Assembly (NCBI GenBank): GCA_965261085.1
Contig: OZ253442.1
Span: forward strand, 2,560,001-2,624,000
Reading direction: 5' to 3'
DNA length: 64,000 nucleotides
Source of the DNA: a bacterium
GTDB lineage: Bacteria; UBA8248
Every line of letters starts with the position of its first letter. The first letter of the stretch is position 1. Both the position numbers and the translations under genes were made by a program. Below the pieces are notes generated by a model. That model had not been told where the DNA came from, did not search any database, and worked only from the letters and a program-made list of their open reading frames with translations. This document shows positions 1,092 through 63,010 of the stretch, piece by piece.

Positions 1092-1120
1092 TTGACACCT
1101 GCGGTTTCCGTTCCTAAGAT
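1092..1120 (+). promoter_or_regulatory. Putative sigma70 promoter for the lipA operon
   Basis: TTGACA-N17-TAAGAT preceded by an AT-rich tract. Confidence 0.6.
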
Positions 1121-17069: not shown

Positions 17070-17624
17070 GTGATACGCCTTCGCCTGTTTCCCCAGGGAC
17101 TCGATGAAGTAAAGAGTTTCGCCGCTGTTTCCATGTTCGCGGTGGAGGATTTTCCGTTTCAAGGGAGATTGGGTGAAATCGATCGCTTGCTGGAGAGCGA
17201 GGCGAGCCGCCTGGTGCAGCAGGGCAAATTGAGCGGCGCATGGGAGTCGCAAGCTTTGCTGGCCTCAAAGGGACGACTCGCGCCAGAATACGTATTGTTC
17301 GCAGGACTCGGTTCTTTGGAGGACTTGACCCTGACGAAGCTCTATCGGCGCGCAAAGGAGATTTTTAGAAGAATGATGAAGGCGTCGGCGAAGAATTTGT
17401 CGATGCAGGTTTCCGGTTTCGCGCAGCTTCCCGATGATTTCGCTCCTGTGGCCACGGAGATCATGAACGGTGCGATACGGGGCGTTATCGGAAACCCTTG
17501 GGATGTCGATATTCTTGTTTGCGAACCAAATGACGAGAAATATGACGAGTTGATTGCGCTGAGCGAGCAAATTGCTTTCAGCAGCGTGAAGAACCGCGAG
17601 CTCTCCCTGGAGGTTTTGATTTGA
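17070..17624 (+). CDS. Stand-alone leucyl aminopeptidase (M17) N-terminal-domain-like protein
   Basis: PFQGRLGEIDRLL, LLASKGRL and VLFAGLG resemble the PepA N-terminal domain; no catalytic domain is present. Confidence 0.55.
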   Translation: MIRLRLFPQGLDEVKSFAAVSMFAVEDFPFQGRLGEIDRLLESEASRLVQQGKLSGAWESQALLASKGRLAPEYVLFAGLGSLEDLTLTKLYRRAKEIFRRMMKASAKNLSMQVSGFAQLPDDFAPVATEIMNGAIRGVIGNPWDVDILVCEPNDEKYDELIALSEQIAFSSVKNRELSLEVLI

Positions 17625-18157
17625 GCGAGGCGCTTTTGAGGACGATTTACAAGTTTCATTTCGCTCTCCTGTTGAGCGTTTTCCTGGCGGCGGGCTGCGG
17701 CTACGAGCTCGAGGGAACCCGCCGCCCCGAGAACCTAAAAGGCGTGCGCACGATTTCGATACCTCCATTCCTGAACCAGACGAGCGAGCCGGGCCTCGGG
17801 CGCGCAGTTACGAAAACGGTGCGAGGAAGATTCTTGCGGGACGGCCGCCTCCGGGTTTCTGACTCCCCAGATGCGGATATCACTCTCGAAGGTGTTTTGC
17901 GGGAGTATCGTCTCTCTCCGATTGGCTTCACTCACGCCGACAGGGTTCAGCAATACCGCGTCGTCGTGCGCACCCGGATACGGCTGCGCGACAAGGGGCG
18001 GAGGAAATTGCTCATCAATCAGGATGTGGAGTCCTATGCCGAGTTCGAGGTTTCCTCATCCATCGCGCAAAGCGACGCGAACCGCTCGAGTGCGAATCAG
18101 CGAGTGGCCGATACTCTATCGGAAGACGTCGTCAGCCTCGTGCTAGAGGGCTTTTAG
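17621..18157 (+). CDS. lptE: LPS assembly lipoprotein LptE family
   Basis: Lipobox LAAGC followed by GY, IPPFLNQT, and position upstream of holA. Confidence 0.85.
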   Translation: MSEALLRTIYKFHFALLLSVFLAAGCGYELEGTRRPENLKGVRTISIPPFLNQTSEPGLGRAVTKTVRGRFLRDGRLRVSDSPDADITLEGVLREYRLSPIGFTHADRVQQYRVVVRTRIRLRDKGRRKLLINQDVESYAEFEVSSSIAQSDANRSSANQRVADTLSEDVVSLVLEGF

Positions 18158-26469: not shown

Positions 26470-26868
26470 ATGGGTAGTCTTCGACTCATCATCGGCTTGA
26501 TTCTGGCATTAGCAATTTCGAGCTTCGGTGTCATCAACATGAAGCCGGTGACTGTTTCCTATTATCAGGGCAGCATCAACTTGTCTCTTTTTTATGTCCT
26601 GTTGGTTGTGTTTGCATGCGGGTTCATGGTGGCATGGTTTGGCGGGGCATTGGACAGATTGAAGTTCAGGACTCAAATTGGAAAATTGAAACGCGAAGTA
26701 AAGACGTTGGAGAATAATCTGGATGAGGTGCGGGAGAATAGCGGTAAGCTCCTCACGATGGGAAATCCAGAAACCGATAAATCCGTGCCTGCACGTGATG
26801 AACGTGCATCGCAAACTGGTTCCAAACCTCAGATGAGCCTATCCCCCCGTGAATCAAAGGCGGAGTAG
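26470..26868 (+). CDS. lapA: LapA-domain (DUF1049) membrane protein
   Basis: TM helix, NMKPVTVSY, second TM helix, then a coiled coil, matching the LapA architecture. Confidence 0.7.
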   Translation: MGSLRLIIGLILALAISSFGVINMKPVTVSYYQGSINLSLFYVLLVVFACGFMVAWFGGALDRLKFRTQIGKLKREVKTLENNLDEVRENSGKLLTMGNPETDKSVPARDERASQTGSKPQMSLSPRESKAE

Positions 26869-26870
26869 GT

Positions 26871-29561
26871 ATGTCTCCCCCCAAAGGTATTCTGCAAGCT
26901 AAGAAAGAAACAAATGCATCAGGTAATAAGAGCCGGGCTCCATCTCCTGCGATGCGCCAATACTTGGAAATAAAAAGGCGCTACCCGGACGCGATGCTGT
27001 TTTTTCAGTTGGGTGATTTTTTCGAGATGTTTTATGAAGACGCGAAGCTCGGGGCGAAAGTACTGGAACTCACGCTGACGTCGCGACAGAGTGATGACAA
27101 GGGGCCCATTCCAATGTGTGGCGTGCCGTGTCATTCGGCATCCTCTTATTGTGGGCGATTACTGGAAGCAGGTTTTAAAGTCGCCATATGCGAACAGGTG
27201 GAAGATGCGGGAGAAAGTAGGGGAGTTGTGAAGCGCGAGGTGACTCGCGTCCTCACTCCGGGTACCTCGATTGCCGACCTTGAGTTACTGGATGGCAAGG
27301 AATCTCAATACTTGGCGGGGATTACGGTATCGGCAAAAGAAGGAGAGGCGCTTTGGGGAATAGCATGGCTCGATAGTTCGACTGGTGAGTTTTGTGCGAC
27401 CCAGGCGGAAGGCGATGGTGCCGAGACGCTCATTTGCAATCAATTGGAGAGGCTTTCTCCTCGCGAACTCATCTTGCCGGATGTATTTTCTCCGCCCGAT
27501 GAGTTGAAAAGAAAAATTGATGAACTAGGCATTTATATTGAAAAAAGGCCAGCCGCCACTTTTTATGAGCCGCTTGATTTCAAAAGCTTGGACGCCATAT
27601 TTCCGGATGAAGCGAATGTTCTGGCGAATCCGGCGGCGGTGGATTCCGCCGTCGGCGTTTTGACGTATCTCAAAGAAAACCAGCCTGGTGATTTTCCCCA
27701 TCTCAAACCTGTTTTTTTCTCCCGACTTTCGGACACAATGATTCTCGATGCAGCCACGTTGCGAAATTTAGAACTCACACGTTCATCCGTGGATCGTGGG
27801 AAAAAGGGCACTTTATTTGGTTTGTTGGATGAGACGCTGACTGGGATGGGAGGACGTCTGCTGAATAAATGGGTCCTTTCCCCTTTGATTCAAAAAAAGG
27901 CCATCGATTATCGCTCCGAATCCGTACAGGAACTCGTTGATAACCTCGAAATCCTGAATATGCTCAAAAATGCCCTTGAACCCGTTCAAGATATCGAGCG
28001 GCTCCTGGGGCGTGTGGGTTCTCAAACTGCAAACGCTCGAGACTTGGCGGGGCTCGGCGCATCTTTGGCCATGTTGCCAGAGGTTTGTGAGGCGATAACG
28101 GGGATGGAATCAGAGTTGTTTCGCTCCGTCTTGTCGGGGTGGGATTTTATCGAGGACGTAACGTTGGAACTGGAGAGCGCGATTGTGGATGACCCGCCCG
28201 TTTCGATTCGAGAGGGTGGAATGTTTCGCGCAGATTATGACCAAGAACTCTCTCAATTGAGAAGGGCGCAGCAGGAGGGCGATAAGTGGCTGAAAAATTA
28301 TGAAAGCAAGGAAAAAGAACGAACGGGACTGCCTCTAAAAATCGGGTTTAATCGTGTTTTTGGGTATTATCTCGAAATAACCAAACGCTTCAGTGAACAG
28401 GCGCCGACGGAATATACGCGCAAGCAAACCCTCGTTTCTGCAGAGCGGTACATCACATCCGAGTTAAAGAAGATGGAAGAGGACATTCTTGGCGCGGAGG
28501 AGAAAGACCATCATCTCGAGTTCATGCTTTTTGGACGCTTAAGAGCGCAAATATCAAAACAGGCCAAGCGCATACTCGCTGCCGCGGAGAGGATAGCGAT
28601 TCTTGATGCCGTTCTATCCTTGGCGCTAGTTGCGCGCAAATATGGATACGTCAGGCCCCAAATTATGGATTCCAGGGATCTTGAAATTATCGAGGGCAGG
28701 CATCCTGTCATGGAGGCGGAAAATCCTGGTCTCTCTTTCGTGCCGAACGATTTGTCGATTCGCGATGATCGTCGAATACTCATTATTACAGGGCCGAATA
28801 TGGCCGGAAAATCCACTTACCTGCGTCAATCGGCGCTCATCATTCTGATGGCGCAAATTGGCAGCTTCGTACCCGCCAAGAGCGCGAAAATCGGTTTGGT
28901 CGATAGGGTGTTCACTCGCGTTGGCGCGCATGACCGACTTTTGGAGGGGCAGAGCACCTTCATGGTCGAGATGGTGGAGACGGCCACTATACTAAGAGAG
29001 TCGACGCAAAAAAGTTTCATCGTTCTGGACGAAGTCGGGCGAGGCACGAGTACTTTTGATGGAGTGAGCATCGCCTGGTCGATTGTAGAGTATCTTCATA
29101 ATGAAGTTCGCCACAGTGCGAGGACTTTGTTCGCGACCCATTATCATGAATTGGCTGAACTCTCTCAAGAACTCACTTGTGTGAAAAATTTGACGGTAGA
29201 TGTTCGAGAATGGGGCGATGAAATCGTTTTTTTACGAAAAGTAGTCGATGGCAGTTGCGATAGAAGCTACGGAATTCAAGTAGGCAGGTTGGCGGGACTT
29301 CCAGAAGAGGTCATTGATCGGGCGAAAACTTTGCTCTCCAAGTTTGAGAGTGCAGAGGCCATGTCCCGTTATGGCGGGGAAAAATCTTTTTTGGAAAATC
29401 GCCGGGAAAAAGGGCAATTGCCTTTGTTTTTACGCGCGGAATCACAAGTCGAGGAGGTGTTGAAAGACCTTGACCCGGATTCCATGACACCTCGCCAAGC
29501 TCTAGAAGCCCTATATGAACTCCGAAAAACCATGGAGAGCGGTGGGCAATCGCAAAAATGA
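26871..29561 (+). CDS. mutS: DNA mismatch repair protein MutS
   Basis: GDFFEMF, TGPNMAGKST, STFMVEM, DEVGRGTS and FATHYHEL. Confidence 0.97.
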   Translation: MSPPKGILQAKKETNASGNKSRAPSPAMRQYLEIKRRYPDAMLFFQLGDFFEMFYEDAKLGAKVLELTLTSRQSDDKGPIPMCGVPCHSASSYCGRLLEAGFKVAICEQVEDAGESRGVVKREVTRVLTPGTSIADLELLDGKESQYLAGITVSAKEGEALWGIAWLDSSTGEFCATQAEGDGAETLICNQLERLSPRELILPDVFSPPDELKRKIDELGIYIEKRPAATFYEPLDFKSLDAIFPDEANVLANPAAVDSAVGVLTYLKENQPGDFPHLKPVFFSRLSDTMILDAATLRNLELTRSSVDRGKKGTLFGLLDETLTGMGGRLLNKWVLSPLIQKKAIDYRSESVQELVDNLEILNMLKNALEPVQDIERLLGRVGSQTANARDLAGLGASLAMLPEVCEAITGMESELFRSVLSGWDFIEDVTLELESAIVDDPPVSIREGGMFRADYDQELSQLRRAQQEGDKWLKNYESKEKERTGLPLKIGFNRVFGYYLEITKRFSEQAPTEYTRKQTLVSAERYITSELKKMEEDILGAEEKDHHLEFMLFGRLRAQISKQAKRILAAAERIAILDAVLSLALVARKYGYVRPQIMDSRDLEIIEGRHPVMEAENPGLSFVPNDLSIRDDRRILIITGPNMAGKSTYLRQSALIILMAQIGSFVPAKSAKIGLVDRVFTRVGAHDRLLEGQSTFMVEMVETATILRESTQKSFIVLDEVGRGTSTFDGVSIAWSIVEYLHNEVRHSARTLFATHYHELAELSQELTCVKNLTVDVREWGDEIVFLRKVVDGSCDRSYGIQVGRLAGLPEEVIDRAKTLLSKFESAEAMSRYGGEKSFLENRREKGQLPLFLRAESQVEEVLKDLDPDSMTPRQALEALYELRKTMESGGQSQK

Positions 29562-29688
29562 AGATAGGGTCCGCGACACACCACCCAGTTCGGTTTGCTG
29601 AAGCCTTGAAGGCAGAGAAGCCAAACAAGGGATTGAGAGCTTTTTTCTTATGCGATAGCATTGTGAACTTAGAGCCCAAGGGGAACAT

Positions 29689-30294
29689 ATGTTGTCTAAC
29701 ACCCAGAAAACATTTGTTCTGAGAAAATTTGCGATAGTCATCTGTTTGCACTTCGTTCTAGTGGGGCCGGCACTTTCCGCAACGGACAACCAGGGTGGAA
29801 TCCGAATAGAAGATATTATCGTCATTGAGAAGAATGGGCAGTTGCTCGTTTTTGGTTCTCTCTTGAGTGCATTTTCACCAAAACTGTTGGAAGCCATTCA
29901 CAGCGGTGTGACCACGAAGTTTATCTTTGATGTAAGTCTCCTCCGCTCTCGCAAGCTGATTTATGATTTGGAAGTCACCTCGCGGCAATTACATCATCAA
30001 GTGAAATATAGCGCTTTGAAAAAAACATACACTTTTCATCTTAAAGAAGGTGCGAAAGACATCGAGAGAAAAGTGACAAGAAGCCAAGGTGAAATGACGG
30101 ACTGGATGCGAGAGTTGAATGGTGTGCCCATCGTCTCTGGCGAGGCACTGTCTCCAAATAGTCAATTTTATGTCAAAATCAGTGCGCGGTTGAGTCATGT
30201 GGATTTTGTTTTTCCCTTTAACTATTTACTCGCTTTTTGGGGGAAGAAGTCTGATTGGAGCTATTCCCCAAAATTTAGTTCTAAAGGAATGTGA
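29689..30294 (+). CDS. DUF4390-like exported protein (NtrY-associated)
   Basis: Signal peptide, LLEAIHSGVTTKFIF and position immediately upstream of the NtrY-like kinase. Confidence 0.7.
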   Translation: MLSNTQKTFVLRKFAIVICLHFVLVGPALSATDNQGGIRIEDIIVIEKNGQLLVFGSLLSAFSPKLLEAIHSGVTTKFIFDVSLLRSRKLIYDLEVTSRQLHHQVKYSALKKTYTFHLKEGAKDIERKVTRSQGEMTDWMRELNGVPIVSGEALSPNSQFYVKISARLSHVDFVFPFNYLLAFWGKKSDWSYSPKFSSKGM

Positions 30295-30297
30295 GTT

Positions 30298-32562
30298 GTG
30301 CACTCAAAGCGACTGAAAAATCAAGAAACTTCTTCACGCCGGCGAAGGACACTTCTGCGGTCCTTCATCGCTTTGATCATTATTGCGACTCTTTCGTTCA
30401 CGGCTTGGATTTATTTCAAAGAGCTCGAGCCAGGAGTCCCTCTACTGAACAACGTCGTCGTATTTGCGCTCGTGAACCTGAGTATCATTCTGCTCATGGT
30501 GGTGATTCTCTTGGTGGCGAAGAACTTGGTGCGTCTTTACTACGAGGGGAGAACGGGTGCCGGTCGCTCACGTTTGCAATTAAAGCTTGTATTGGCTTTT
30601 GTCGGATTTACGCTCATACCTGTAGTGGCTCTTTTTGTGGTGGCCAGCGGCTTGATAAACCAAAGTTTTAACGCCTTGTTCAACATGAATGTGGAGAGAG
30701 CGCTTAAAGGATCGTTCGAGGTAGCTCAAACCTATTATCGCGAGGTGGAGCGAAACGCACTGGTCAGCGCGAGTCGACTTGCGCTTATATTGGAGAAGAC
30801 ATCCCCCGACATAGTGGAAAACCCCAAGGCGGTTGAAAACATATTGGAGTCCGAGAGGAAGAGCTTGGGGGTGGATTTCATCCAGCTCTACGATAGAGAA
30901 CGAAAGGAGATCGTATCGGTCAAGCGCCCGGGGTTGGAACGAGCCATTATGTTCTCGCCACTGGTGGGATACGTGGATCAGGTGATTGATGGGGAGTCGC
31001 GCTCAAGTGTAGAGAATTGGGAAAAAGGAGATGTCATCTATGGCGTGGCTCCTTTGAAGATTCAAAAAAAAGTGGTGGGGTTTGTCGTTGTATCCAAATA
31101 TGTCTCTGATAGGCTCGTTGAGAAGATAAGAGGCATATCGGATTCTTTTGTGAATTATAAAGAGTTGGAATTGTCCAAGAATCCAATTAAAGCTAACTAC
31201 ATCGTCACTTTTTTGGTGGTCACTCTGCTCATTCTGTTCGCTGCCATATGGTTTGGTTTCTACCTCGCTCGCGGTATCACGGTTCCCATCGAAAAATTAG
31301 CGGAAGCCACAAGGGCGGTGTCGGATGGCGATCTCGAACATCGCGTAGATGCGCAAGCGGATGGCGAGGTGGGGATTTTGGTCAGCGCATTCAACAGCAT
31401 GACGGAAGAATTGTCGGCTAACAAGGAGAAAATCGAAGAGTCCTCTGAAATTCTGCGCCGCTCCAACATGGAAATCGACAGAAGGCGCAGATATATGGAA
31501 GCGATGCTCGAAAATATCGGAGCTGGTGTGATATCAATCAATCGCCGAGGGCGCGTTACTATTCTCAACACAGCGGCTGGAGAGTTGCTGAGTATTGAGC
31601 CTCAGAATGCCGTGGGACGAATGTTCAGCGAGGTTTTTGAAAGCGCGCATCTCGAACCCGTTCGTCAGTTGATGCGCTCAATGAGGGATCGAAAACACCA
31701 AAGCGCTTCGGAGCAAGTGGAGCTCATGATTGATGGCCGCGTACTGACGCTACGCGCGAGCTTGACCCTGCTCAAAAGCGCGGATGGTGGTAGGCTCGGT
31801 GCAGTCATTGTGTTTGATGATATGACGGCTTTGATACGGGCTCAAAAAGTGGCTGCATGGCAAGAAGTGGCTCGCGGCATCGCGCATGAGATCAAAAATC
31901 CGCTGACGCCGATTCAACTCTCTGCTCAAAGAATGAGAAGAAAATTTGAAAGCGGAGCCTATGATTTTGCGGAAGTATTTGAATCTTGTACGGATACCAT
32001 TATCAATCAGGTGACGAGTCTGCTTGAAATGGTGAATGAATTCAGCCGGTTTGCGCGAATGCCGGAGCCGAGATTAAGGGTTTGCGGGTTTGTTCCCCTC
32101 ATTGAGGATGTTGCAAATTTATATCGTGGCAGAAAAGGGGATGTAAAATTTTCCATTCATATCAATGCCGGGGATGCAGCCGTCATGGCGGATCCAGAGC
32201 AGTTGCAACGCGTATTCATCAATTTGCTGGAAAACGCTTTCGAATCCCACGAGATCGAAGGCGAGATAGATTTACAAGCATGGGGTGATAAGAGCAGAAA
32301 TATGATAGTTCTTGAGGTTGCTGACCAGGGGCAGGGTATATCGGAAGATATGAAAGGCCATATATTCTCGCCTTACTTTTCTACAAAAGATAGAGGCTCC
32401 GGGTTAGGTTTGGCTATATGTCACCGCATTGTGGCAGATCATAATGGAACAATAAGCGTGCGAGATAACCATCCAGCGGGTTCTGTTTTTCGTGTAACGT
32501 TGCCGCTGGCGCCTGCTGCGGACATCACACCTGAAAAGCAAAGGACGGCTTCCATTGGATAA
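30298..32562 (+). CDS. ntrY: NtrY-like membrane sensor histidine kinase (periplasmic, HAMP, PAS, HisKA, HATPase domains)
   Basis: AWQEVARGIAHEIKNPLTPIQLSA (H-box), NLLENA, DQGQG and GSGLGL; three N-terminal TM segments plus HAMP and PAS. Confidence 0.9.
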   Translation: MHSKRLKNQETSSRRRRTLLRSFIALIIIATLSFTAWIYFKELEPGVPLLNNVVVFALVNLSIILLMVVILLVAKNLVRLYYEGRTGAGRSRLQLKLVLAFVGFTLIPVVALFVVASGLINQSFNALFNMNVERALKGSFEVAQTYYREVERNALVSASRLALILEKTSPDIVENPKAVENILESERKSLGVDFIQLYDRERKEIVSVKRPGLERAIMFSPLVGYVDQVIDGESRSSVENWEKGDVIYGVAPLKIQKKVVGFVVVSKYVSDRLVEKIRGISDSFVNYKELELSKNPIKANYIVTFLVVTLLILFAAIWFGFYLARGITVPIEKLAEATRAVSDGDLEHRVDAQADGEVGILVSAFNSMTEELSANKEKIEESSEILRRSNMEIDRRRRYMEAMLENIGAGVISINRRGRVTILNTAAGELLSIEPQNAVGRMFSEVFESAHLEPVRQLMRSMRDRKHQSASEQVELMIDGRVLTLRASLTLLKSADGGRLGAVIVFDDMTALIRAQKVAAWQEVARGIAHEIKNPLTPIQLSAQRMRRKFESGAYDFAEVFESCTDTIINQVTSLLEMVNEFSRFARMPEPRLRVCGFVPLIEDVANLYRGRKGDVKFSIHINAGDAAVMADPEQLQRVFINLLENAFESHEIEGEIDLQAWGDKSRNMIVLEVADQGQGISEDMKGHIFSPYFSTKDRGSGLGLAICHRIVADHNGTISVRDNHPAGSVFRVTLPLAPAADITPEKQRTASIG

Positions 32563-34687
32563 GGGACATATCCTCATCGTCGATGATGAGCGCGAAATAC
32601 TCGCGAGCCTGGAAGATGTTTTGCACGATGAAGGGTATCGTGTAGAGAGGGCAGAGTCAGGAGAAACTGCCCTTCAGTTGGTTCGAACCGAAACTCCGGA
32701 TGTGGTTTTAGTTGATGTGTGGATGCCGGGTATTGATGGAATCAAGACTTTGCAAGCGGTGAAAGAGTCGAACGCGGATATAGAAGTCGTCGTGATGTCG
32801 GGTCACGGAAACATTGAAACCGCCGTGGCCGCAACAAAGTTAGGGGCTTTCAATTTTATTGAAAAACCTCTGTCTATCGATGCAGTTTTACGAATAGTCG
32901 ATTCCGCTGTTCAAGCGCGAAGAGCCAAGGAACTCAAGGCGAATGATGTCGTCGATGTGATGCTTGACGGCGCTAGCAAGAGTATTCAAAGGGTTGGAAA
33001 AGCCATCAGGAGAGCGGCGAAAGATATTGACCCCTTACTGATTGCAGGTGAAAGAGGAACCGGCAAGCGTTTTATAGCCAGGGTGATTCATAAGAACGGT
33101 ACCAGCAAAGAAGAAGGTTTTAGGCCTGTTCATTGCCGCTCCCTGTTTCCGATGGCGGAGGTAAACGAATGGGAAGAGGCACTGGAGCGGTTGGTGCCCG
33201 ATACTTTTCAAGGGACGGTATATCTGGATGGTCTGGAGCAGCTACCCATGGCGGAGCGTGAGAGATTTCTCGCTCGATTCCTTGGGCATACGAAGGACTC
33301 AATGCGTTTAATGGTATCCGTTGATCACATGGGAACCCCGAAAGACAAGGCCTACGTGCGAGCCTTGTCCACCAAAATAGGCGCCGATGTAATACATTTG
33401 CCCTCTTTACGTGAACGCAAAGAGGACATTTTACCGTTGGCCAACAGATTTTTGAATGAATGTGCCGAAGTTGGTAGGTATGAAAAGGAATTCTCAGAAG
33501 ATGTCATTGCGCTTCTGGAAGACTATGACTGGCCGGGCAATATCGCAGAATTAAAAGGGGCGGTGACCAAAGCGGCATATTCATCACAAGGATCGGAGAT
33601 TCGCATCGGCCACTTGCCGTATGCGATACGCGAAGCTTCTGATTTCGAAGTGGACACATCAGAAAACGACGCCCCTTCTAATTTTAGTGCGGCCAGAACC
33701 GAGTGGGAGAGACAGTATCTTTCCTTCCATTTGGAGGAGCACGGTTGGGATATCAACAAAACCGCCCAGGCGGTGGGCATGACGGAATCTGGGTTAAAGC
33801 GTAAAATTAAAGCATACAACATAGAGCCCGTATTACCGGCGTCGACGACGCTTCGAGAAACAAATCAAAGGAGTATTTCGAAAAGTGTCGTCTTGTATGG
33901 CCGGGGGCTTCATTCAGGGCTGAAAACCGGCTTGATCATTGAACCCTTGCCGCCGGGGAGCGGAATTCAGTTCGGTAGCCTGACGAGCCCCGATACTGTG
34001 AGGGCGAATGTCGATTTTGTGGATGGCACCAACCATGCGACGAACTTGCGCAATGGAGCTGTGACGGCTCGAACGATAGAGCATCTCATGAGCGCGCTGC
34101 ACGCATACAAGATAAGCAATATACTCATTAAAATGAGTGAGGAAGTGCCTGTCATGGATGGGTCGGCAGTGGAGTTTTGCCGCTTGCTTGAAGAAGCGGG
34201 CATCGAGGATCAAAAGGAAAAACGCGCAGACTTGTGGGTTGATAAGGTTTACGAGGTAGGAGAACCGGGCGACGATAAAGGTTATATTCGTATAGAGTCG
34301 GCGGATTCTTTTTCGGTTTCATATCTCATCGATTATCCTGAGCCGATTGGAAAACAATCCTACCTGTATGAACATAAGAACGCGTTGAGTTTTCAAGAAG
34401 AAATCGCGCCTGCCCGTACGTTTGGTTTTGTTTCTGAACTGGAGTCGCTCGAGAAAATGGGCTTGGCCGAGGGAGGTCGTTGGGATAACGTGATTCTTGT
34501 GGACAAAGCGCGTGTCGTAAATACCCAATTGCGATTTCCTAACGAGTTTGTTCGCCATAAAATTCTTGACGTTATAGGAGATCTGTATTTAACCGGTCGC
34601 CCTATTCGAGGAAAAGTGACCGCCGAGAGAAGTGGCCACCGGCATAATGTCGCCTTGGTCAAAAAGTTGATGGAAGTCCATGGCTGA
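32555..34687 (+). CDS. lpxC: NtrX-like response regulator (REC, degenerate AAA+, HTH) fused to UDP-3-O-acyl-GlcNAc deacetylase LpxC
   Basis: REC residues D10/D11/D54/S82/K104; GERGTGK; WPGN; Fis-type HTH; from aa 438 QRSI...GRGLHSG...TIEHLMSAL...PVMDGSA...APARTFGF...RHKILDVIGDL...SGH. Confidence 0.93.
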   Translation: MDKGHILIVDDEREILASLEDVLHDEGYRVERAESGETALQLVRTETPDVVLVDVWMPGIDGIKTLQAVKESNADIEVVVMSGHGNIETAVAATKLGAFNFIEKPLSIDAVLRIVDSAVQARRAKELKANDVVDVMLDGASKSIQRVGKAIRRAAKDIDPLLIAGERGTGKRFIARVIHKNGTSKEEGFRPVHCRSLFPMAEVNEWEEALERLVPDTFQGTVYLDGLEQLPMAERERFLARFLGHTKDSMRLMVSVDHMGTPKDKAYVRALSTKIGADVIHLPSLRERKEDILPLANRFLNECAEVGRYEKEFSEDVIALLEDYDWPGNIAELKGAVTKAAYSSQGSEIRIGHLPYAIREASDFEVDTSENDAPSNFSAARTEWERQYLSFHLEEHGWDINKTAQAVGMTESGLKRKIKAYNIEPVLPASTTLRETNQRSISKSVVLYGRGLHSGLKTGLIIEPLPPGSGIQFGSLTSPDTVRANVDFVDGTNHATNLRNGAVTARTIEHLMSALHAYKISNILIKMSEEVPVMDGSAVEFCRLLEEAGIEDQKEKRADLWVDKVYEVGEPGDDKGYIRIESADSFSVSYLIDYPEPIGKQSYLYEHKNALSFQEEIAPARTFGFVSELESLEKMGLAEGGRWDNVILVDKARVVNTQLRFPNEFVRHKILDVIGDLYLTGRPIRGKVTAERSGHRHNVALVKKLMEVHG

Positions 34688-36472: not shown

Positions 36473-37201
36473 TTGCGTAAATCGAGTTTCTTGATATTAG
36501 TATTTGTTTTTTTGCTTTTCGCGTTTTCGCAAGAGCGTGCTCTCAGCGCATCTATGGCGGAAGAATCGCGTCTGAAGGCGGAGAAAATAATCACGACGCT
36601 TCAGGAAAAATTTGAGGCTCTCGAATCTCTGCAAGCCTCTTTCGAGCAGAAAAATGAAATAAAATCCCTTGGGCGAACAACGACGTCGAGCGGGAGTCTC
36701 TCGTGGAAGAAGCCCGGCAAATTGCGCATGGAGTATGTCAAGCCTGAAAAGCAGGTTCTGGTCTCTGATGGTCATACGTTTTGGCTCTACACCGCTCGCT
36801 TCAGACAGGTGATGGTTTCCAAAACCGGGGGTTCTGGGTTTGGAGCCACCCCTTTGTTATTTTTGTCGGGCGAGGGGAATTTGAAAAAGAATTTTCATGT
36901 AATCGTGGAAGAGATTGGAATTGCCAGACGAAGTGAAGGAATCTGGAGAGCCGGTCAGCCCCATCGCATTCGGCTGGAGCCGAAGTCTCCGGGCGCATCA
37001 TTTAGCCGAATGTGGGTTGAGGTGGAACCTGAGAATTTCGTAATCCTCACTTTGGCGTATATTGATAATATCGGCAACAAAAGTCACTTGCGGTTTTCAA
37101 ACGTCAAAGAAAACGTCAAAATCGCAGAAGAGGAATTTCAGTTTGTTGTGCCGCCAAATGTCGAAGTACTACAAATGCCGGCTCAGAGCGGCCAGCGATA
37201 A
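36473..37201 (+). CDS. lolA: Outer-membrane lipoprotein carrier LolA
   Basis: Signal peptide, ASFEQ, KKPGKLRMEY and VSDGHTFWLY. Confidence 0.88.
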   Translation: MRKSSFLILVFVFLLFAFSQERALSASMAEESRLKAEKIITTLQEKFEALESLQASFEQKNEIKSLGRTTTSSGSLSWKKPGKLRMEYVKPEKQVLVSDGHTFWLYTARFRQVMVSKTGGSGFGATPLLFLSGEGNLKKNFHVIVEEIGIARRSEGIWRAGQPHRIRLEPKSPGASFSRMWVEVEPENFVILTLAYIDNIGNKSHLRFSNVKENVKIAEEEFQFVVPPNVEVLQMPAQSGQR

Positions 37202-37219
37202 ATAAGGACTTATTCGAGA

Positions 37220-38416
37220 ATGGCGATGCAAATCATAAACTGGGTGATGGGTTTGGGGCAGACGATTTTCTGGGCTGTACTGGTTCTGGGGTTACTCATT
37301 TTTATCCATGAGTTGGGCCACCATCTCGTCGCAAAATGGCTCAAAATCGGCGTTTCCACATTTTCTTTAGGCTTCGGTCGCCGCATTTGGGGCTTTCAAC
37401 GAGGAGAGACTGAATATCGTATTTCGCTCATCCCCTTGGGTGGTTATGTAAAGCTTGTGGGAGAAGATCCAGAAGCGCAACCTGATAATCCCGATGCGCC
37501 CAAAGAGCCGGATGAGCCGGAGAAATCCTTCTACTTGCGGCCTGTGAGCCACCGATTGGCTGTCATTTCGGCGGGCCCCTTGTTTAATGTCGTCCTGGCG
37601 ATTCTCCTCAGTTGGGGATTGCACTTTGGCGGCATTCCTGTGCCGGGAACGTGGGTTGGCGGTGTTTTGCCTGATACGCCTGCGCAAAAAGCGAACCTTC
37701 AAACTGGCGATCATATCGTGGCTATTGATGGAAAACGAATTCAAAAATGGTCCGAGCTCGTCGAAATTGTACGAAAAAATGCCGATAAAAAACTCGTGTT
37801 GACGGTGGAGCGTAGCCGCAATTCCTTTGAAACGCTCATTGTTCCGACATCGAGGAGCGCGACGGGCAAAGAATTGGGTTATGGCCGGATCGGCATTAGT
37901 ATCGGCCAAGGCGCCTACTCCGAGCGTTTTGGCTTCCTTGAGTCTTTGGGGAAGGGAATCGAGCAAAACTACCGCATCGCCAGCTTAACGGTCTTTACGC
38001 TGTATTCGATGCTCACGAAGACCATTCCTGCGGATATCGGAGGGCCGATTCGTATTTCTATGGTGGCCGCGGAGCAGGCGCAGCGCGGATTCCGCTACCT
38101 CGTCATGTTCACGATTTTGCTCAGCGTCAATCTGGCGATTTTGAACTTGCTGCCAATCCCGGTTCTCGATGGTGGGCACATTTTTTTCTTGCTTGTTGAA
38201 GGCTTGCGTGGCAAACCTATTAGCCTGAGAATCCGGGAACTGGCCATGCAGGTGGGCACCGTTCTACTAATCGGGTTGATGATCTTTGCCACTTACAAGG
38301 ACAGTGTGTATTATCTTTTTAGTAGTGAATCGTCATCGATAACGAAAAATGAGAAGCAAGAAGGGAAAGTGAAGAGCGCAACGAAGCCATCTCCAGAAAG
38401 CAGAAAAGGCGAATAG
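37220..38416 (+). CDS. rseP: RIP metalloprotease RseP
   Basis: HELGH, PLGGYVK, AGPLFN, PDZ domain and NLLPIPVLDGG. Confidence 0.95.
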   Translation: MAMQIINWVMGLGQTIFWAVLVLGLLIFIHELGHHLVAKWLKIGVSTFSLGFGRRIWGFQRGETEYRISLIPLGGYVKLVGEDPEAQPDNPDAPKEPDEPEKSFYLRPVSHRLAVISAGPLFNVVLAILLSWGLHFGGIPVPGTWVGGVLPDTPAQKANLQTGDHIVAIDGKRIQKWSELVEIVRKNADKKLVLTVERSRNSFETLIVPTSRSATGKELGYGRIGISIGQGAYSERFGFLESLGKGIEQNYRIASLTVFTLYSMLTKTIPADIGGPIRISMVAAEQAQRGFRYLVMFTILLSVNLAILNLLPIPVLDGGHIFFLLVEGLRGKPISLRIRELAMQVGTVLLIGLMIFATYKDSVYYLFSSESSSITKNEKQEGKVKSATKPSPESRKGE

Positions 38417-41932: not shown

Positions 41933-42009
41933 GGCGGCGTAGCTCAACCGGTTAGAGCATACGGCTCATATCCGTAGTGTTGGGGGTTCAAGTCCCTCCG
42001 CCGCTACCA
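41933..42009 (+). tRNA. tRNA-Met (CAT), elongator type
   Basis: Cloverleaf GGCGGCG...CGCCGCT-A-CCA; anticodon arm TACGG-CTCATAT-CCGTA; TTCAA T-loop; encoded CCA. Confidence 0.93.
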
Positions 42010-42039: not shown

Positions 42040-43524
42040 ATGACCTCGGACGCCTTGCAAGTAACTGCTTTGAAGATAAAAAAAACATTTAAAGCCAAGG
42101 TGAGAAAGGGTCTCAAAAAATCAGCTTATGAGGCCAAGTCTGCGCCTTTGCTCGTCGGTTTTTCGGGTGGTGCGGATTCCACAGCTCTTTTGGTGTCCTT
42201 AAAGTCGCTCTTGCCGGCATCACAGCCCCTATGTGCCGTTCATGTCGAACATGGGCTCCGTGGCGATCTGTCAAAAAAAGATGCTGAGCATACCAAGCAT
42301 ATGTGTCATCGGTACGAAATAGATTTTCGTTGCGAGCAGGTTTGTGTGTCTCGAATAGCGCACTTGGGCCTCGAAGGAGCTGCTCGCGAATCGAGGCGAT
42401 CGGCATTCCTGGCTGTCGCTAAGGAGATGGGCGCCAATACCCTCGCGTTGGCCCACAACATGGATGATCAAGCCGAAACCGTGCTCATGCGTTTATTTGA
42501 AGGAGCAGGCGTGAGAGGGATTTCAGGCATGAGATGGCGGACCCCGCTATCGTCGAACAAAGAAGATGGACTTCACATTATCCGACCCTTGCTGAATGTG
42601 TCGCGCACGGAAATTTTGGAGTATTTAGAGGCGCAGGGCATCGCCTGGATTGAGGATGAAACGAATGCAGACGAGAGCCGTCTTAGGAATCGGATAAGAA
42701 AAATAATTATACCGGTAGTTCGAGAGTATATGGGCGATGCGGCCATCAGCGGAATTGCCAAGAGCGCGGAGATATCGGCCCCCCTTATCTCTTTCATGGA
42801 CCAAATGTCCCGGGAATTGAATGCGAAATTTATCCACGAAGATGATGGGAAATTCGTTATTTTTCCTTTGCATGAGGTGACAGAACTCACTCAATCGCTT
42901 AGGGCCGGGCTTTGGCGCTCGGTACTGAGTATGCTCAGGTACGAATCGCCCGCTCAGGCTCGCAGACGCCCTCTCCGAAAGTGGATTGAAGACTTGGATG
43001 GCCTAGCAATGGGGGATAAGCCTTCGGGGGTGTTGAGTTTGCCTGGCGACTTGGAAGCAAGAAGGGAATATGACCGCCTTATCTTCGGGCCTTCCCATTT
43101 TGATTCGAAGTTGCTTGAGGAGAAAAAGCTCCGGATTCCAGGAAAAACGGTTCATCATTCATTAGGCCTTGCAATAGAAACTTCATGCGATTTTACGCAT
43201 CATCCGAGAGGAACATGGGTAGTACGTCTCGATATAGAAAAACTGGGGATGGATGCCTGTATTCGGACCCGGCGCGATGGAGATCGGTTCCATCCTTTAG
43301 GCCGAAAAAAGGCAAAGAAACTCAAGGATTACTTTATAGAGCAAAAAATACCGAAACCCTTAAGAAATCAGATACCTCTCTTGGCGGCAGGGGATAAAGT
43401 GGCTTGGATTATTGGTCACCAAGTTTCAGCGGAATTCGTACTTGATGGCAATGAAAAGAGGGGGATTACCCTTAAAGCGTTGCTAGAGAATGAAGACAGT
43501 AAACTCTTAAGTTCGTTGAGCTAG
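42040..43524 (+). CDS. tilS: tRNA(Ile)-lysidine synthetase
   Basis: SGGADS, HGLR, AHNMDDQAET, IRPLL and RNRIR, plus the TilS C-terminal domain. Confidence 0.95.
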   Translation: MTSDALQVTALKIKKTFKAKVRKGLKKSAYEAKSAPLLVGFSGGADSTALLVSLKSLLPASQPLCAVHVEHGLRGDLSKKDAEHTKHMCHRYEIDFRCEQVCVSRIAHLGLEGAARESRRSAFLAVAKEMGANTLALAHNMDDQAETVLMRLFEGAGVRGISGMRWRTPLSSNKEDGLHIIRPLLNVSRTEILEYLEAQGIAWIEDETNADESRLRNRIRKIIIPVVREYMGDAAISGIAKSAEISAPLISFMDQMSRELNAKFIHEDDGKFVIFPLHEVTELTQSLRAGLWRSVLSMLRYESPAQARRRPLRKWIEDLDGLAMGDKPSGVLSLPGDLEARREYDRLIFGPSHFDSKLLEEKKLRIPGKTVHHSLGLAIETSCDFTHHPRGTWVVRLDIEKLGMDACIRTRRDGDRFHPLGRKKAKKLKDYFIEQKIPKPLRNQIPLLAAGDKVAWIIGHQVSAEFVLDGNEKRGITLKALLENEDSKLLSSLS

Positions 43525-48574: not shown

Positions 48575-49186
48575 ATGCTTTTCCGTAAGATGCTGAGAAT
48601 GGTGTTGCTGGGCTTTCTACTCGCGATTGGCGGTACAATTGCCTATTTTATCGTGAGTTCTTCGGATCATCTTCTGAATATAGGAGAATTTTCGTTCACA
48701 GACTCGGATGCGGACTTCAATATAGATAAAGTGCATGTAGTTGAAAACACAAAAGGCGTCAGGGAGTGGGAGTTGTGGGCGGACTCCGCCAAGGTGTACC
48801 GGCAAAAAGATTTGACCATTCTGAAGAATCTGAAGCTTCGTTTTTATCCGAAAGAAGGTGAACCGGCGCATGTGACCGCCCAGGAAGGAACCATGCAGAA
48901 CGAGAGTCGAAACATTAGAATCAGCGGCAATGTCACCATCTTAGCGTCGAATGGCGTTTCAATGAAAACAGACTCTTTGTATTTTCGCTCAAAAGAAAAA
49001 CGCATTGATTCGGATTCGCAGGTTTTGATGGAAGGGGCTCGCTTTCGCTTGATCGGCACTGGCCTACAAGGGCAAACAGATCTGGGGAATTACAAATTGA
49101 AGGAAAATGTGAGCGCTACGATATACGGTGCGAGCAATGATTTCCTCAACCAGGAAAGAGGAAATAAGCTTATTCGCGCCAAATAA
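48575..49186 (+). CDS. lptC: LPS export ABC transporter periplasmic protein LptC
   Basis: N-terminal TM, WELWADSA and beta-jellyroll repeats; lptCAB-rpoN gene order. Confidence 0.85.
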   Translation: MLFRKMLRMVLLGFLLAIGGTIAYFIVSSSDHLLNIGEFSFTDSDADFNIDKVHVVENTKGVREWELWADSAKVYRQKDLTILKNLKLRFYPKEGEPAHVTAQEGTMQNESRNIRISGNVTILASNGVSMKTDSLYFRSKEKRIDSDSQVLMEGARFRLIGTGLQGQTDLGNYKLKENVSATIYGASNDFLNQERGNKLIRAK

Positions 49187-49221
49187 GGGAGCATACGGCC
49201 GATCCCGAATGGAGGGCTGTT

Positions 49222-49815
49222 TTGAAACCGAAAAACTACCGCCTGAAGCGTTTTGGCCCCATTGGTATAGGGTTATGCTTAGTTTTTTCATTGTGGACTG
49301 GCTCTTACTCATTCGCACAGCCAAAAAACAAGCAAAGCCGATTAAACCGCAAGGCTCCGATTCACATTACCTCCAACAAGATGGAAGTGAACAGCCGGAA
49401 GAATCTCATCGTGTTCATCGGGGATGTAAAGGCGAATCAGGGAAACATGCGCATAAAAGCGGATCGTCTCGAAGTATATACGCTGGAAGCTAAGCGACCG
49501 GGCTCGAAGCGTAGGCTGGCCCCCAAGGACAGGGCAGGGGAAGTCGATAGAATTGTGGCCATCGGAAACGTGAACATGGATCAAGCGAAAAGAAGGTTTG
49601 CCACTGCAGCTCGGCTTGAATATCGAGAATCCACCGGCATCGCTGTATTGACAGGAAGCCCTCGCGTGTGGGAAGGAAAGAATCAGCTAGTCGGCGCCAA
49701 AATAGAATTGAATTTGAAAGAAGAAAAAACGATAGTTCATGGCTCACCTCGCCGGAGAGTCAGCGTTACCCTTTTTCCTTCCAGCGAGACACCACGCCGC
49801 AAAAAATCCAATTAG
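49222..49815 (+). CDS. lptA: LPS transport periplasmic protein LptA
   Basis: Signal peptide, [21 protein letters not shown] and LTGSP. Confidence 0.88.
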
Positions 49816-49819
49816 ACTC

Positions 49820-50584
49820 ATGGCTACGAGAACCGACGGCAATGCGATTCGACACGGCGGGGTTGTCTCAATTCTCGCCACTGGATTAACGAAAAGCTAT
49901 TCTGGCCGAAAGGTTGTCTCCGGCGTGGAGCTCGAAGTACATCCCGGCGAAATTGTGAGTTTGCTTGGACCAAACGGGGCCGGCAAAACGACGATATTCT
50001 ATATGATTGTCGGGTTAATCGTTCCAGATTCGGGAAAAATATTTTTGAACGGCAGGGAAATCACCGACCAGCCCATGTATATGCGCGCCAAGCAGGGAAT
50101 CAGCTATTTGCCTCAGGAGGCGTCTGTGTTTCGTCGTCTTTCGGTGAGGCAAAACATCATGGCGGTGCTTGAATTGGTTTCGAGTGATCCAAACCAGCGC
50201 GAGAAACGATTGTATGAAATTTTAGAGGACCTGGATATCAAGCACATTCAATCTGTGAAGGGATATGCCCTCTCCGGCGGTGAACGTAGGCGTGTGGAAA
50301 TTGCCAGGGCATTGGCCACAAATCCCGATTTTATGCTCCTTGATGAGCCTTTTGCCGGTATTGATCCGATCGTGGTTCACGATATCCAGAACATTGTGGC
50401 GGGCTTAAAAGCTCGTGGAATTGGAGTCATTATCACGGACCACAATGTGCGCGAGGCCTTTCAGATATCCGACAGGGTATACATCATCAATGAGGGACAG
50501 ATACTGGAGTCTGGTATCCCTGAGGAAATTGCCGCCAGCGATAAGGCTCGGGATGTTTATCTGGGCGAAAAATTTCGTCTTTGA
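49820..50584 (+). CDS. lptB: LPS export ABC ATPase LptB
   Basis: [27 protein letters not shown] and [10 protein letters not shown]. Confidence 0.96.
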
Positions 50585-50601
50585 AGGCGAGAGGAATAAA
50601 C

Positions 50602-52044: not shown

Positions 52045-52294
52045 CACTAGATGCGGCCTGTGCATTGACTCATATTTCGTGCCCACGCACACCGTGGTTC
52101 GTAGAGGTGGGGCAAGAGGCTCCATGGGCTTGTGATTAATCTGAAATGATTTTGAATGTTTGTTATTATCCATAGAATCTGGGCGTTATATTCTCCGGGG
52201 CGCAGTATGGTGGCTCCAAGTTTCGTGTAGGGCGTTCACTCGTATCACCAGAATGGACATTCAGTCCCTTGGGGCGTATTGAACGTCGAGGAAA

Positions 52295-53236
52295 GTGATG
52301 AGTAAACTCTCGGTATCTCAATTGTACGAAGATCTGCGGGAAGAGTTGAAGTTATCCATACTCTCGGGCGAATCTGGCATGAGCCGCTGGATTAATCATA
52401 CGCACTTTCAGAAAAATGGTTTGCCTCTTGCTGGATTTTTGAAAGCTGTGCACCCGGATAGGGTTCAGGTATGGGGCAGCACAGAAGTAGGTTTTCTGGA
52501 AGACCTGAAAGAGGAGGAGAGAATCGAAGCGGTGCGTAAATATTTTCGTATGCCTCTGTGCGCCGTACTGGTTACGGGAGGAAAATATATTTCTCCGAGT
52601 ATCAGGGATGTATCGGATCAATCAGGGGTGCCGATTATACTCTCGGGCTTGCATGGCAAGGATTTGATGCCGAAATTGTCGGGGTATCTCGAGGAGCATC
52701 TCTCCCCGCATGCGCGGCTCCACGGCGTCCTTGTTGATTTGTACGGTGTCGGGGTATTTATTCAAGGCAAAAGCGGCATTGGTAAAAGCGAGTGCGCACT
52801 CCATCTCGTCACGCGGGGTCATCGGCTCGTTGCAGACGATGTGGTGGATATTCAGTTGCGCGGAAATGAGTTGGTTGGAAAAAGCACAGAACTACTTAAA
52901 CACCACATCGAGGTAAGGGGGCTTGGAATACTGAATCTGAAAGACCTGTTTGGCGTGGTCGCGATTCGGTATGAAAAAAATGTCGACATCATCGTGGAGT
53001 TGATTCCTTGGAGTCCGGATTTGGCTTTCGAGCGTCTCGGAATCGATATCGAGACCCAAAATGTCTTGGGTAAATACCTGCCGCACGTGAAAATCCCCGT
53101 TGCTCCAGGGAGGAATATACCCACGCTGATCGAGGTGGCTGCCAGGAACCTGTTGTTGCAGAGAATGGGTTATTTCTCCGCAGAAGAATTCAGCCGCACC
53201 CTCTCTGCCCGGATCGCGCTCGAATCGACGGATTAG
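52295..53236 (+). CDS. hprK: HPr(Ser) kinase/phosphorylase
   Basis: HGVLVD, GKSGIGKSE, LVADD and EVRGLGI. Confidence 0.95.
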   Translation: MMSKLSVSQLYEDLREELKLSILSGESGMSRWINHTHFQKNGLPLAGFLKAVHPDRVQVWGSTEVGFLEDLKEEERIEAVRKYFRMPLCAVLVTGGKYISPSIRDVSDQSGVPIILSGLHGKDLMPKLSGYLEEHLSPHARLHGVLVDLYGVGVFIQGKSGIGKSECALHLVTRGHRLVADDVVDIQLRGNELVGKSTELLKHHIEVRGLGILNLKDLFGVVAIRYEKNVDIIVELIPWSPDLAFERLGIDIETQNVLGKYLPHVKIPVAPGRNIPTLIEVAARNLLLQRMGYFSAEEFSRTLSARIALESTD

Positions 53237-53263
53237 AAGGATAAAAGGAAAAAGAGGTTTCGC

Positions 53264-62999: not shown

Positions 63000-63010
63000 G
63001 GAGTTTGGCC

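Follow-up and report, generated by a model that had tools for sequence, protein, structure and literature searches.

A response regulator fused to LpxC behind a DUF4390 protein and an NtrY-type kinase, a candidate dedicated system for lpxC control

We describe a three-gene module in a 64-kb stretch of bacterial DNA (GTDB lineage UBA8248; assembly GCA_965261085.1, contig OZ253442.1, positions 2,560,001 to 2,624,000 of the forward strand), referred to below as the window, to whose positions all coordinates refer. The module encodes an exported protein of the DUF4390 family, a sensor histidine kinase of the NtrY type and a response regulator, and the response regulator carries an LpxC domain with all its catalytic residues at its C-terminal end. 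LpxC is the control point of lipopolysaccharide (LPS) synthesis, commits the cell to lipid A and is a long-standing antibiotic target. We consider it fairly probable (about 60%) that the module is a system dedicated to the control of lpxC, in which transcriptional control, as the sequences of relatives suggest, has been replaced by direct phospho-control of LpxC, the last of these steps being one that we infer. The evidence for this reading comes from the conservation of the receiver and LpxC parts of the fusion, from the decay of the domains between them and from unfused relatives in which the same pathway is encoded beside a separate lpxC.

The module and its fusion protein

All three open reading frames (ORFs) lie on the plus strand, and the gene calls were checked with Pfam and NCBIfam profile searches, each against its curated cut-offs. 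The features of the module are as follows.

29689-30294, plus strand: DUF4390 (PlrP-like) protein, predicted to be exported; ATG start, 201 amino acids (aa); Pfam PF14334, E=2.7e-25, 89.1 bits against a cut-off of 27
30298-32562, plus strand: NtrY-type sensor histidine kinase; GTG start, 754 aa; Pfam NtrY_N, HAMP, PAS, HisKA and HATPase_c
30658-31194, plus strand: kinase periplasmic domain, aa 121-299; from hydropathy, between membrane segments 3 and 4
31264-31416, plus strand: kinase HAMP domain, aa 323-373; PF00672, E=1.7e-13
31492-31824, plus strand: kinase PAS domain, aa 399-509; PF00989, E=5.8e-15
31858-32511, plus strand: kinase HisKA (aa 521-588; PF00512, E=6.3e-11) and HATPase_c (aa 632-738; PF02518, E=1.6e-23)
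32555-34687, plus strand: fusion protein with REC, decayed AAA+, lid, HTH and LpxC, from Pfam and NCBIfam; TTG start, 710 aa
32570-32896, plus strand: REC domain, aa 6-114; Pfam PF00072 (Response_reg), E=6.7e-30
32969-33649, plus strand: decayed AAA+ module with lid, aa 139-365; weak Sigma54_activat and Sigma54_activ_2 matches at aa 139-285, AAA_lid_14 at aa 286-365, E=2.4e-20
33701-33817, plus strand: Fis-type HTH (HTH_8), aa 383-421; PF02954, E=5e-6, 26.6 bits against a cut-off of 22
33866-34672, plus strand: LpxC domain, aa 438-706; PF03331, E=1.5e-81, 274.3 bits against a cut-off of 27, profile positions 1-267 of 268

The LpxC domain also scores above the cut-off of the NCBIfam family TIGR00325 (lpxC; 232.9 against 187.25), which places it in the LpxC family. 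LpxC enzymes bind zinc through two histidines and one aspartate and use a glutamate and a histidine in catalysis, and the corresponding catalytic and zinc residues are all present in the fusion (E509, H510, T622, F623, H668, K669, D672, D676 and H695). The TIEHL, FVRHKILDxIGD and SGH motifs of the fusion line up with their counterparts in the solved LpxC chain 6moo_A, and many LpxC structures match fusion residues 437-705. At the other end of the protein, the receiver has a complete pocket, with the acidic residues D10 and D11, the phospho-acceptor D54, and then S82 and K104.

The part of the protein that precedes LpxC is laid out like an NtrX-type regulator: REC is followed by an AAA+ domain lacking GAFTGA and by a Fis-type HTH, and the gene comes right after that of an NtrY-type kinase. 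The Walker A motif of the AAA+ domain reads GERGTGKR, its Walker B motif reads YLDGLE, and the alignment shows the GAFTGA loop to be deleted; with neither GAFTGA nor the acidic pair of Walker B, the fusion lacks the features of a sigma-54 enhancer-binding protein. For residues 5-421 the top-scoring family is the NtrX equivalog NF051870, although its 248.8 bits fall far short of the cut-off of 600. Among solved structures, the best relative of these residues is 5m7n (E=1.8e-46), which we take to be Brucella NtrX, a dimeric regulator without GAFTGA.

The genes are tightly coupled, exactly as a first-pass annotation made from the DNA letters had claimed: the DUF4390 and kinase genes are separated by 3 nucleotides (nt; 30295-30297), and the fusion starts with a TTG at 32555, 8 nt inside the kinase gene, whose TAA stop codon lies at 32560-32562. 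A purine-rich AAAGGA is located 9 nt 5' of this TTG. Two other loci (L002 and L003, see below) repeat this arrangement of three genes down to the 3-nt gap and the 8-nt overlap, and because of the length of the ORFs, the strong family matches and this recurrence, chance is ruled out as the source of the module.

The kinase has a multi-pass N-terminus with four membrane segments in a hydropathy scan, and a periplasmic domain followed by HAMP, PAS, HisKA and HATPase_c, which together with NtrY_N mark it as NtrY-type; the NtrY_N match, at 23.5 bits, barely exceeds its cut-off of 23.2, and the protein reaches no NCBIfam equivalog cut-off. Its H-box, AHEIKNPL, is intact, so that the earlier description of a kinase with periplasmic, HAMP and PAS domains and a complete H-box is borne out by Pfam, the hydropathy scan and the motif itself. 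The periplasmic region can be aligned across 13 kinases (alignment A5) and may adopt a PDC fold, a label taken by analogy from the description of PlrS in PMC13001219. In the fetched loci, kinase homologues with the same N-terminal region sit upstream of both fused and unfused regulators, with E values from 2e-224 to 6e-33.

The first gene had been annotated as encoding an exported DUF4390-like protein, and the PF14334 match and a hydrophobic N-terminal signal (approximately aa 1-32; hydropathy segment 7-33) agree with this. With its gene directly 5' of an NtrY-type kinase, the protein has the characteristics of a DUF4390/PlrP-type component. Its AlphaFold2 model (predicted local distance difference test, pLDDT, 81.6; predicted template modelling score, pTM, 0.72) consists of one N-terminal helix and then about nine strands forming a beta-sandwich. 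A Foldseek comparison of this model with the PDB gave no match at E<=1e-3, the best query-normalised TM-score being 0.39 to generic Ig/FnIII-like sandwiches, and comparison with the ESM Atlas gave no usable match; the predicted fold thus offers no hint of a ligand.

Relatives, gene neighbourhoods and trees

To describe how widely the fusion occurs, we sorted by a domain check the 120 best relatives from a word-indexed protein search. They comprised 111 proteins with REC, AAA/HTH and LpxC, five with REC and LpxC, and four that were cut at the N-terminus. Their identity to the window fusion ranges from 99% to 39%, and they lie on contigs of up to 4.39 Mb. Source names include Nitrospinae/Nitrospinota, to which the nearest named relatives belong, Candidatus Tectomicrobia, Candidatus Schekmanbacteria and Thermodesulfobacteriota, and the proteins are labelled plain LpxC by NCBI and often NtrX by the Joint Genome Institute (JGI). 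A second set, the best 150 clusters from an exhaustive search of 50%-identity representatives, held 15 long fusions, 6 N-terminally cut proteins, 37 REC-LpxC proteins, 17 with LpxC only, 74 unfused REC-AAA regulators and a single REC protein. The fusion is real, and shorter REC-LpxC forms are widespread too.

Conservation was followed in two alignments of long fusions (A1, 11 diverse sequences; A2, 80 sequences) and in 35 short forms. Residues D10, D11, D54 and K104 of REC are invariant in the 11 fusions and at least 90% conserved in the 80, the nine LpxC residues listed above are invariant in both alignments, and the equivalent residues of both domains are conserved in the 35 short forms. A GAF[TS]GA motif occurs in none of the 120 best relatives and in none of the 58 fused clusters among the best 150. 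Walker B is degenerate in every fusion aligned, with distant fusions carrying other defective versions. Mean identity to the window protein across the 80 fusions is 0.62 for REC and 0.61 for LpxC, 0.42 for the lid, 0.42 for the HTH, and lowest, at 0.33, for AAA+. Judged by these identities, the AAA+, lid and HTH parts change at roughly double the rate of REC and LpxC, the pair that selection has kept. A remnant of the HTH, its last helix (E=4.9e-4), was detected in one of the 35 short forms, the Nitrospinota protein P0053; because the other 34 have none, some short forms may be old deletions or separate fusions.

Gene neighbourhoods were surveyed with one scan of species-representative genomes, using the fusion alignment as query and patterns in its LpxC and REC parts. 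The best 80 of at least 604 stretches gave 78 loci, which were classified by local searches and Pfam.

Long fusion, 8 loci: NtrY-like kinase directly upstream in 4 (L001-L004); DUF4390 in L002 and L003
Short fusion, 14 loci: kinase and DUF4390 upstream in L017 only, in the order DUF4390, kinase, short REC::LpxC
Unfused regulator, 10 loci: NtrY-like kinase directly upstream in 10/10; DUF4390 in 8/10; lpxC directly upstream of DUF4390 in 7/10, a figure that is not an unbiased frequency because the ranking of the scan may favour loci holding both halves of the query
LpxC only, 46 loci: DUF4390 immediately downstream, at the contig end, in 2 (L059, L072)

The first-pass annotation had made its reading depend on lpxC being associated with ntrYX-type loci in further genomes, and such an association is present. 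Seven loci (L040, L043, L055, L061, L062, L066 and L069; the lpxC of L066 is partly N-masked) have the order lpxC, DUF4390, ntrY, response regulator, and two more have lpxC and DUF4390 at contig ends. The genomes of the seven are named Desulfobacteraceae, Desulfobacterales or Deltaproteobacteria (Desulfobacterota), Thermoanaerobaculia or Acidobacteria (Acidobacteriota), and Methylomirabilota. DUF4390 was seen 13 times among the 78 loci, every time beside an NtrY-like kinase or at a contig end, and DUF4390 relatives were found on contigs equal in size to 13 fusion-bearing contigs, including that of the short form P0053.

In the regulators of these seven lpxC clusters, GAFTGA is intact in six, and Walker A (GENGxGKE) and Walker B (FLDE) are intact in all seven; by their motifs, these unfused regulators are intact sigma-54 activators. 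Sigma-54-type sites, defined as TGGCACG-N4-TTGCW (-24/-12) with at least 10 of 12 positions matching (background 57 sites in 1,186,058 nt), were found within about 70 nt of the lpxC start in five of the nine lpxC-DUF4390 loci. About 120 nt further upstream, three related Acidobacteriota loci share a TGTGG-N8-CCACA palindrome. No sigma-54 promoter was found before DUF4390, either at 29301-29710 of the window or in 11 loci.

Since the unfused neighbours of lpxC are true sigma-54 activators by sequence, the GAFTGA-less state of the fusion looks like decay after the fusion event, and the regulator half of the window protein is most plausibly a sigma-54 activator from the NtrY-associated family that has decayed. 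We infer that it no longer activates transcription and carries LpxC as its output instead. The earlier designation of the protein as an NtrX-LpxC fusion therefore stands for LpxC, with the fusion present in 111 of the 120 relatives, whereas the NtrX label fits no further than the loss of GAFTGA, given the score of 248.8 against 600 and the sigma-54 activators of the unfused clusters.

Phylogenetic trees were built from quick searches, and their supports are Shimodaira-Hasegawa-like approximate likelihood ratio values (SH-aLRT); because their root is not known, the direction of change proposed here is read from the decay pattern. In the LpxC tree, a branch with an SH-aLRT of 100 separates every fused domain, from long and short forms alike, from canonical LpxC, including that of the lpxC clusters. 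This division appears with 128 rows under LG+G4 (57 canonical against 67 fused and 4 short rows of 283-292 aa that are maybe fragments) and, under a site-mixture model, with 67 rows, of which 41 are fused and 26 canonical. Short REC-LpxC proteins are nested among the long forms, two of them within the window's own clade, one of these being P0053. In the tree of the regulator half, all 29 long fusions form one group (support 98), and the relation of this group to the GAFTGA-bearing cluster regulators and to a 34-row clade without GAFTGA is left unplaced. The trees are compatible with a single origin of the long fusion.

Several individual fusion loci differ from the common forms. In a Thermodesulfobacteriota metagenome-assembled genome (L005, 3173-5670), the long fusion is spread over two ORFs, one with REC and part of AAA+ and the other with the rest of AAA+/HTH and LpxC, reflecting either a sequencing frameshift or a real split. 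In a Thermoanaerobaculia genome (L006, 2023-4616), REC-LpxC is followed by a 299-aa ORF matching LpxC profile positions 181-244 of 268, which may be a decayed or divergent second copy. Elsewhere the fusion lies beside a different kinase and an OmpR-type regulator (L013, 7250-11782) or beside hybrid kinases (L014, 41-8277), and in these two genomes it may have been rewired to other inputs.

Promoter candidates and genomic setting of the module

Upstream of the DUF4390 gene, we found one candidate promoter.

29633-29661, plus strand: sigma-70-like promoter candidate, TTGAGA-N17-TAGCAT; 28 nt before the DUF4390 start codon, score 9/12

Sigma-70-like sites are not in excess in the scanned region, with 6 found against 5.4 expected from shuffles; the candidate is kept as TTGAGG-N17-TAGCAT in L002 and L003.

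The window is an ordinary chromosomal housekeeping stretch with nearly all genes on one strand. The module is flanked by mutS upstream and by purM, purN, lolA and rseP downstream, and nitrogen-metabolism genes are absent from these flanks. A second lpxC was not found within the 64 kb. The genes for the outer-membrane lipoprotein chaperone LolA and the envelope-stress protease RseP lie at 36473-38416, 2-3 kb downstream of the module on the same strand, after purM and purN, and purN is also found 3' of the fusion in L008 and L077, both of which have no adjoining kinase or DUF4390 gene. Further downstream, at 48575-53686, is a cluster of lptC, lptB, rpoN, hprK and PTS-EIIA; the presence of rpoN means that the genome has sigma-54, although the fused regulator lacks the motifs to use it. 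The G+C content drops from about 0.59 (1-14 kb) to 0.48-0.50 (26-44 kb), and GC skew is positive across the whole window. A tRNA-Met (CAT) at 41933-42009, directly before tilS (42040-43524), is the sole RNA gene found in the window. Seven window ORFs of 132-385 aa have no NCBIfam match at E<=1e-10; they lie at 73-1098 (minus strand), 4021-4482, 17070-18157, 26470-26868 and 61842-63578.

Known systems, alternative explanations and the role of the module

The closest functional parallel comes from Desulfovibrio. The only genomic site bound by the D. vulgaris regulator DVU2934, which shares an operon with the kinase DVU2931, lies upstream of lpxC (Rajeev et al. 2011, PMC3333781). When a transposon is inserted in the gene of the D. 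alaskensis kinase Dde_3000, lpxC is practically the only gene to go up (Kuehl et al. 2014, PMC4045070). The regulator Dde_3003 is a sigma-54 activator and the lpxC of D. alaskensis has a sigma-54 site (PMC4045070), which resembles the sites in five of the nine clusters described here. As in the module, a kinase and a regulator form a pair; the sole detected target of the Desulfovibrio pair is lpxC. In Syntrophobacter fumaroxidans, lpxC lies directly upstream of the regulator operon orthologous to that of DVU2934 (PMC3333781), a placement that matches our lpxC-DUF4390-ntrY-regulator clusters. The systems differ in that Desulfovibrio uses transcriptional control by a working sigma-54 activator, whereas in the window LpxC is inside the regulator protein and the activator motifs are gone. 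The Desulfovibrio papers mention neither DUF4390 nor NtrY.

The order of the genes is that of Bordetella, in which an exported DUF4390 protein, an NtrY-type kinase and a regulator (PlrP, PlrS and PlrR) are likewise encoded in this order with small overlaps. In PlrSR, an NtrYX-family system, PlrP is the indispensable third component, and the genetics point to PlrP holding back the phosphatase activity of PlrS by way of the PlrS periplasmic domain (Wolber et al. 2026, PMC13001219). PlrR differs in being a free-standing regulator, and PMC13001219 makes no mention of lpxC; its survey covers proteobacteria only, and the link that it draws between PlrP and PlrS is genetic. In two Desulfobacterota loci (L040, 10347-11446; L055, 10366-11495), the regulator is followed by an rsmD-like methyltransferase gene (Cons_hypoth95) and a cytidylyltransferase-like gene, which recalls the rRNA methyltransferase gene rsmB flanking Bordetella plrP (PMC13001219).

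A connection between NtrYX and lpxC is also known from Alphaproteobacteria. Loss of NtrYX in Rhodobacter sphaeroides raises lpxC mRNA about 9-fold and raises LPS (Lemmer et al. 2020, PMC7240162), and NtrYX lowers lpxC transcription in Caulobacter too (2025 review, PMC12444477). These systems share with the window the kinase type and a regulator without GAFTGA, and differ in that, as described, the effect on lpxC is indirect, within a regulon of dozens of genes, and no fusion is involved. The first-pass annotation had cited for NtrYX-type systems a frequent upstream DUF4390 gene and an envelope link in Alphaproteobacteria: the latter holds, and the former is established for beta- and gammaproteobacteria and not for Alphaproteobacteria, no alphaproteobacterial genome in the survey of PMC13001219 having a DUF4390 gene. 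In E. coli, LpxC is likewise a known control point and is regulated by FtsH/LapB-dependent proteolysis (PMC12444477), which in enterobacteria uses a C-terminal degron. In the window protein, unlike the degron-bearing enterobacterial LpxC, the alignment to solved LpxC reaches residue 706 of 710, leaving no comparable C-terminal extension. The window protein also matches NCBIfam NF009667, the bifunctional LpxC/FabZ fusion, and LpxC is known from fusion proteins; that fusion joins two lipid-synthesis enzymes and has no signalling domain.

For an enzyme governed by an attached receiver, the model is CheB, which consists of a receiver and a methylesterase and in which phosphorylation of the receiver relieves inhibition of the enzyme. 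The short REC-LpxC forms resemble it in having a receiver, a flexible linker and an enzyme. CheB belongs to another enzyme family and pathway, the long LpxC fusions have two extra domains, and no REC-LpxC contact is predicted. There are thus precedents for a two-component system controlling lpxC, for a third component of the DUF4390 family and for a receiver whose output is an enzyme, while the fusion and the lpxC-DUF4390-ntrY cluster appear to be undescribed: neither a receiver-LpxC or NtrX-LpxC fusion nor such a cluster was found in the open literature, with subscription-only papers outside this search.

Other explanations of the fusion have to be weighed. The two halves could be independent, the regulator half being an NtrX-like, sigma-54-independent DNA binder that acts through its HTH, and LpxC a constitutive enzyme fused for co-production only. 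Such independence would suit the HTH_8 match above its cut-off, the presumed Brucella NtrX as the best solved relative and the AlphaFold2 model, whose domains are individually well folded (mean pLDDT 82); because of its pTM of 0.48 and the low-confidence linkers at residues 129-134, 363-376 and 427-432, there is no set REC-LpxC arrangement in it. It is harder to reconcile with the HTH (0.42) and AAA+ (0.33) being the least conserved parts, against 0.62 for REC and 0.61 for LpxC, and with their loss in many lineages in which REC-LpxC stays (37 of the best 150 clusters, with short forms nested among long ones), the Nitrospinota short form P0053 still bearing a remnant of the HTH. A fusion for co-expression alone is disfavoured because the phospho-acceptor is invariant even in forms without the DNA-binding part, and we regard this explanation as unlikely.

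The fused LpxC might otherwise be an accessory or sensory paralogue, with a canonical LpxC doing the housekeeping and the fused domain adding conditional capacity or binding a UDP-sugar intermediate as a signal. Fused LpxC does form a separate group on a long branch with support 100, the class Thermoanaerobaculia has both types, and L006 carries its partial second LpxC-like ORF beside REC-LpxC. A purely sensory domain is disfavoured because it would not need the catalytic and zinc residues that are invariant in both long and short forms. In addition, the 46 LpxC-only loci include no canonical Nitrospinota lpxC among the matches listed, which is weak evidence, and the fusion itself occurs in five loci that are named Nitrospinota or Nitrospinaceae (L001, L008, L077) or are closely similar to the window (L002, L003). 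The 120 best short LpxC matches are mostly fragments on contigs of 1-5 kb, none of them on a contig sized like the long fusion-bearing ones. A search for a second copy that covered the window and these 120 matches returned none. Taking these points together, we find the paralogue explanation rather improbable. A classical NtrYX nitrogen or redox system whose lpxC fusion is an accident of assembly or gene calling could be argued from the JGI name of several relatives, 'nitrogen regulation response regulator NtrX', and from NtrX being the best NCBIfam match of the N-terminal part. The NtrX cut-off is nevertheless missed by a wide distance (248.8 against 600), and the neighbours, mutS, purM and purN, have no role in nitrogen metabolism, leaving this explanation hardly credible. 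As for an artefact, we rejected it: the fusion is in frame in more than 100 independent clusters, over the range of identities (99% to 39%) and contig sizes (up to 4.39 Mb) given above, with no stop codon or frame change.

Several observations weigh against a dedicated system with direct phospho-control of LpxC. Kinase adjacency is not universal, an NtrY-like kinase lying beside four of the eight long fusions and one of the 14 short ones, and the Nitrospinota loci L008 and L077 have the fusion without an adjoining kinase or DUF4390 gene. The class Thermoanaerobaculia holds both the cluster-type canonical lpxC and REC-LpxC, in different genomes. The AlphaFold2 model of the fusion shows no fixed REC-LpxC contact, and the HTH is kept and scores above the Pfam cut-off, which leaves room for a transcriptional output. 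The sigma-54 site of L043 appeared only on widening the scanned stretch, and the scan from which the neighbourhood counts derive may rank loci with both query halves too highly. The orthology of the Desulfovibrio system to the NtrY/DUF4390 clusters rests on the published Syntrophobacter synteny, and phosphotransfer and phospho-dependent LpxC activity are themselves proposed from sequence.

With these reservations, a dedicated route to LpxC would work as follows. The DUF4390 protein would act on the periplasmic domain of the kinase and set its kinase/phosphatase balance, as the genetics of Bordetella suggest, and the kinase would pass phosphate to Asp54 of the response regulator, for which the intact motifs and the translational coupling argue. 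In relatives, the regulator is by its sequence a sigma-54 activator encoded beside lpxC, and it would act on the sigma-54-type lpxC promoter seen in five of nine loci. In the window lineage, lpxC would have been relocated behind the regulator gene and joined to its 3' end in frame, after which the activator machinery (GAFTGA, Walker B) would have decayed and, in many lineages, been deleted, leaving REC, a linker and LpxC. Phosphorylation of the receiver may then act in a CheB-like manner on the attached LpxC, a catalytically competent enzyme, by changing its activity, its stability or its oligomeric state. Our guess is that it turns LpxC on, because the phosphorylated activator of the unfused relatives would raise lpxC expression. 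The retained HTH may still bind DNA, for instance in autoregulation, and LpxC may therefore not be the sole output. The earlier proposal that the circuit's output is directly an LPS enzyme accordingly keeps its footing in the intact LpxC domain, with room left for a second output.

A broader proposal can be put forward more tentatively, as somewhat less probable than its opposite. LpxC may be under the direct control of aspartate phosphorylation, at the end of a relay of three components that senses the periplasm; this would be a route to LPS homeostasis unrelated to FtsH/LapB proteolysis. The family may also record how protein-level control took the place of a transcriptional circuit, in which a sigma-54 activator worked on the lpxC promoter, through fusion, ATPase decay and deletion in succession. 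For NtrY/DUF4390 systems in general, NtrYX and PlrSR among them, the core ancestral role would then have been to adjust lipid A synthesis to the condition of the envelope, as read by DUF4390.

The regulation of LpxC outside the enterobacteria is poorly understood (2025 review, PMC12444477). A natural receiver-LpxC fusion ties the pleiotropic NtrYX/PlrSR family and its DUF4390 partner to the control of lipid A, and this tie would explain why lpxC recurs in NtrYX regulons. Because relatives keep the same pathway beside a separate lpxC, the job of the pathway appears to be the control of outer-membrane lipid synthesis. Work on the Desulfovibrio lpxC system, on alphaproteobacterial NtrYX and on Bordetella PlrP, three literatures without mutual citation on this question, is here joined. 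With one protein, one phosphorylation site and one enzyme activity, the fusion offers a simple system for asking which signal the pathway reads. If the proposed history is true, it would also provide an evolutionary example of the passage from transcriptional to allosteric control, in which a decaying AAA+ module is the trace left over.

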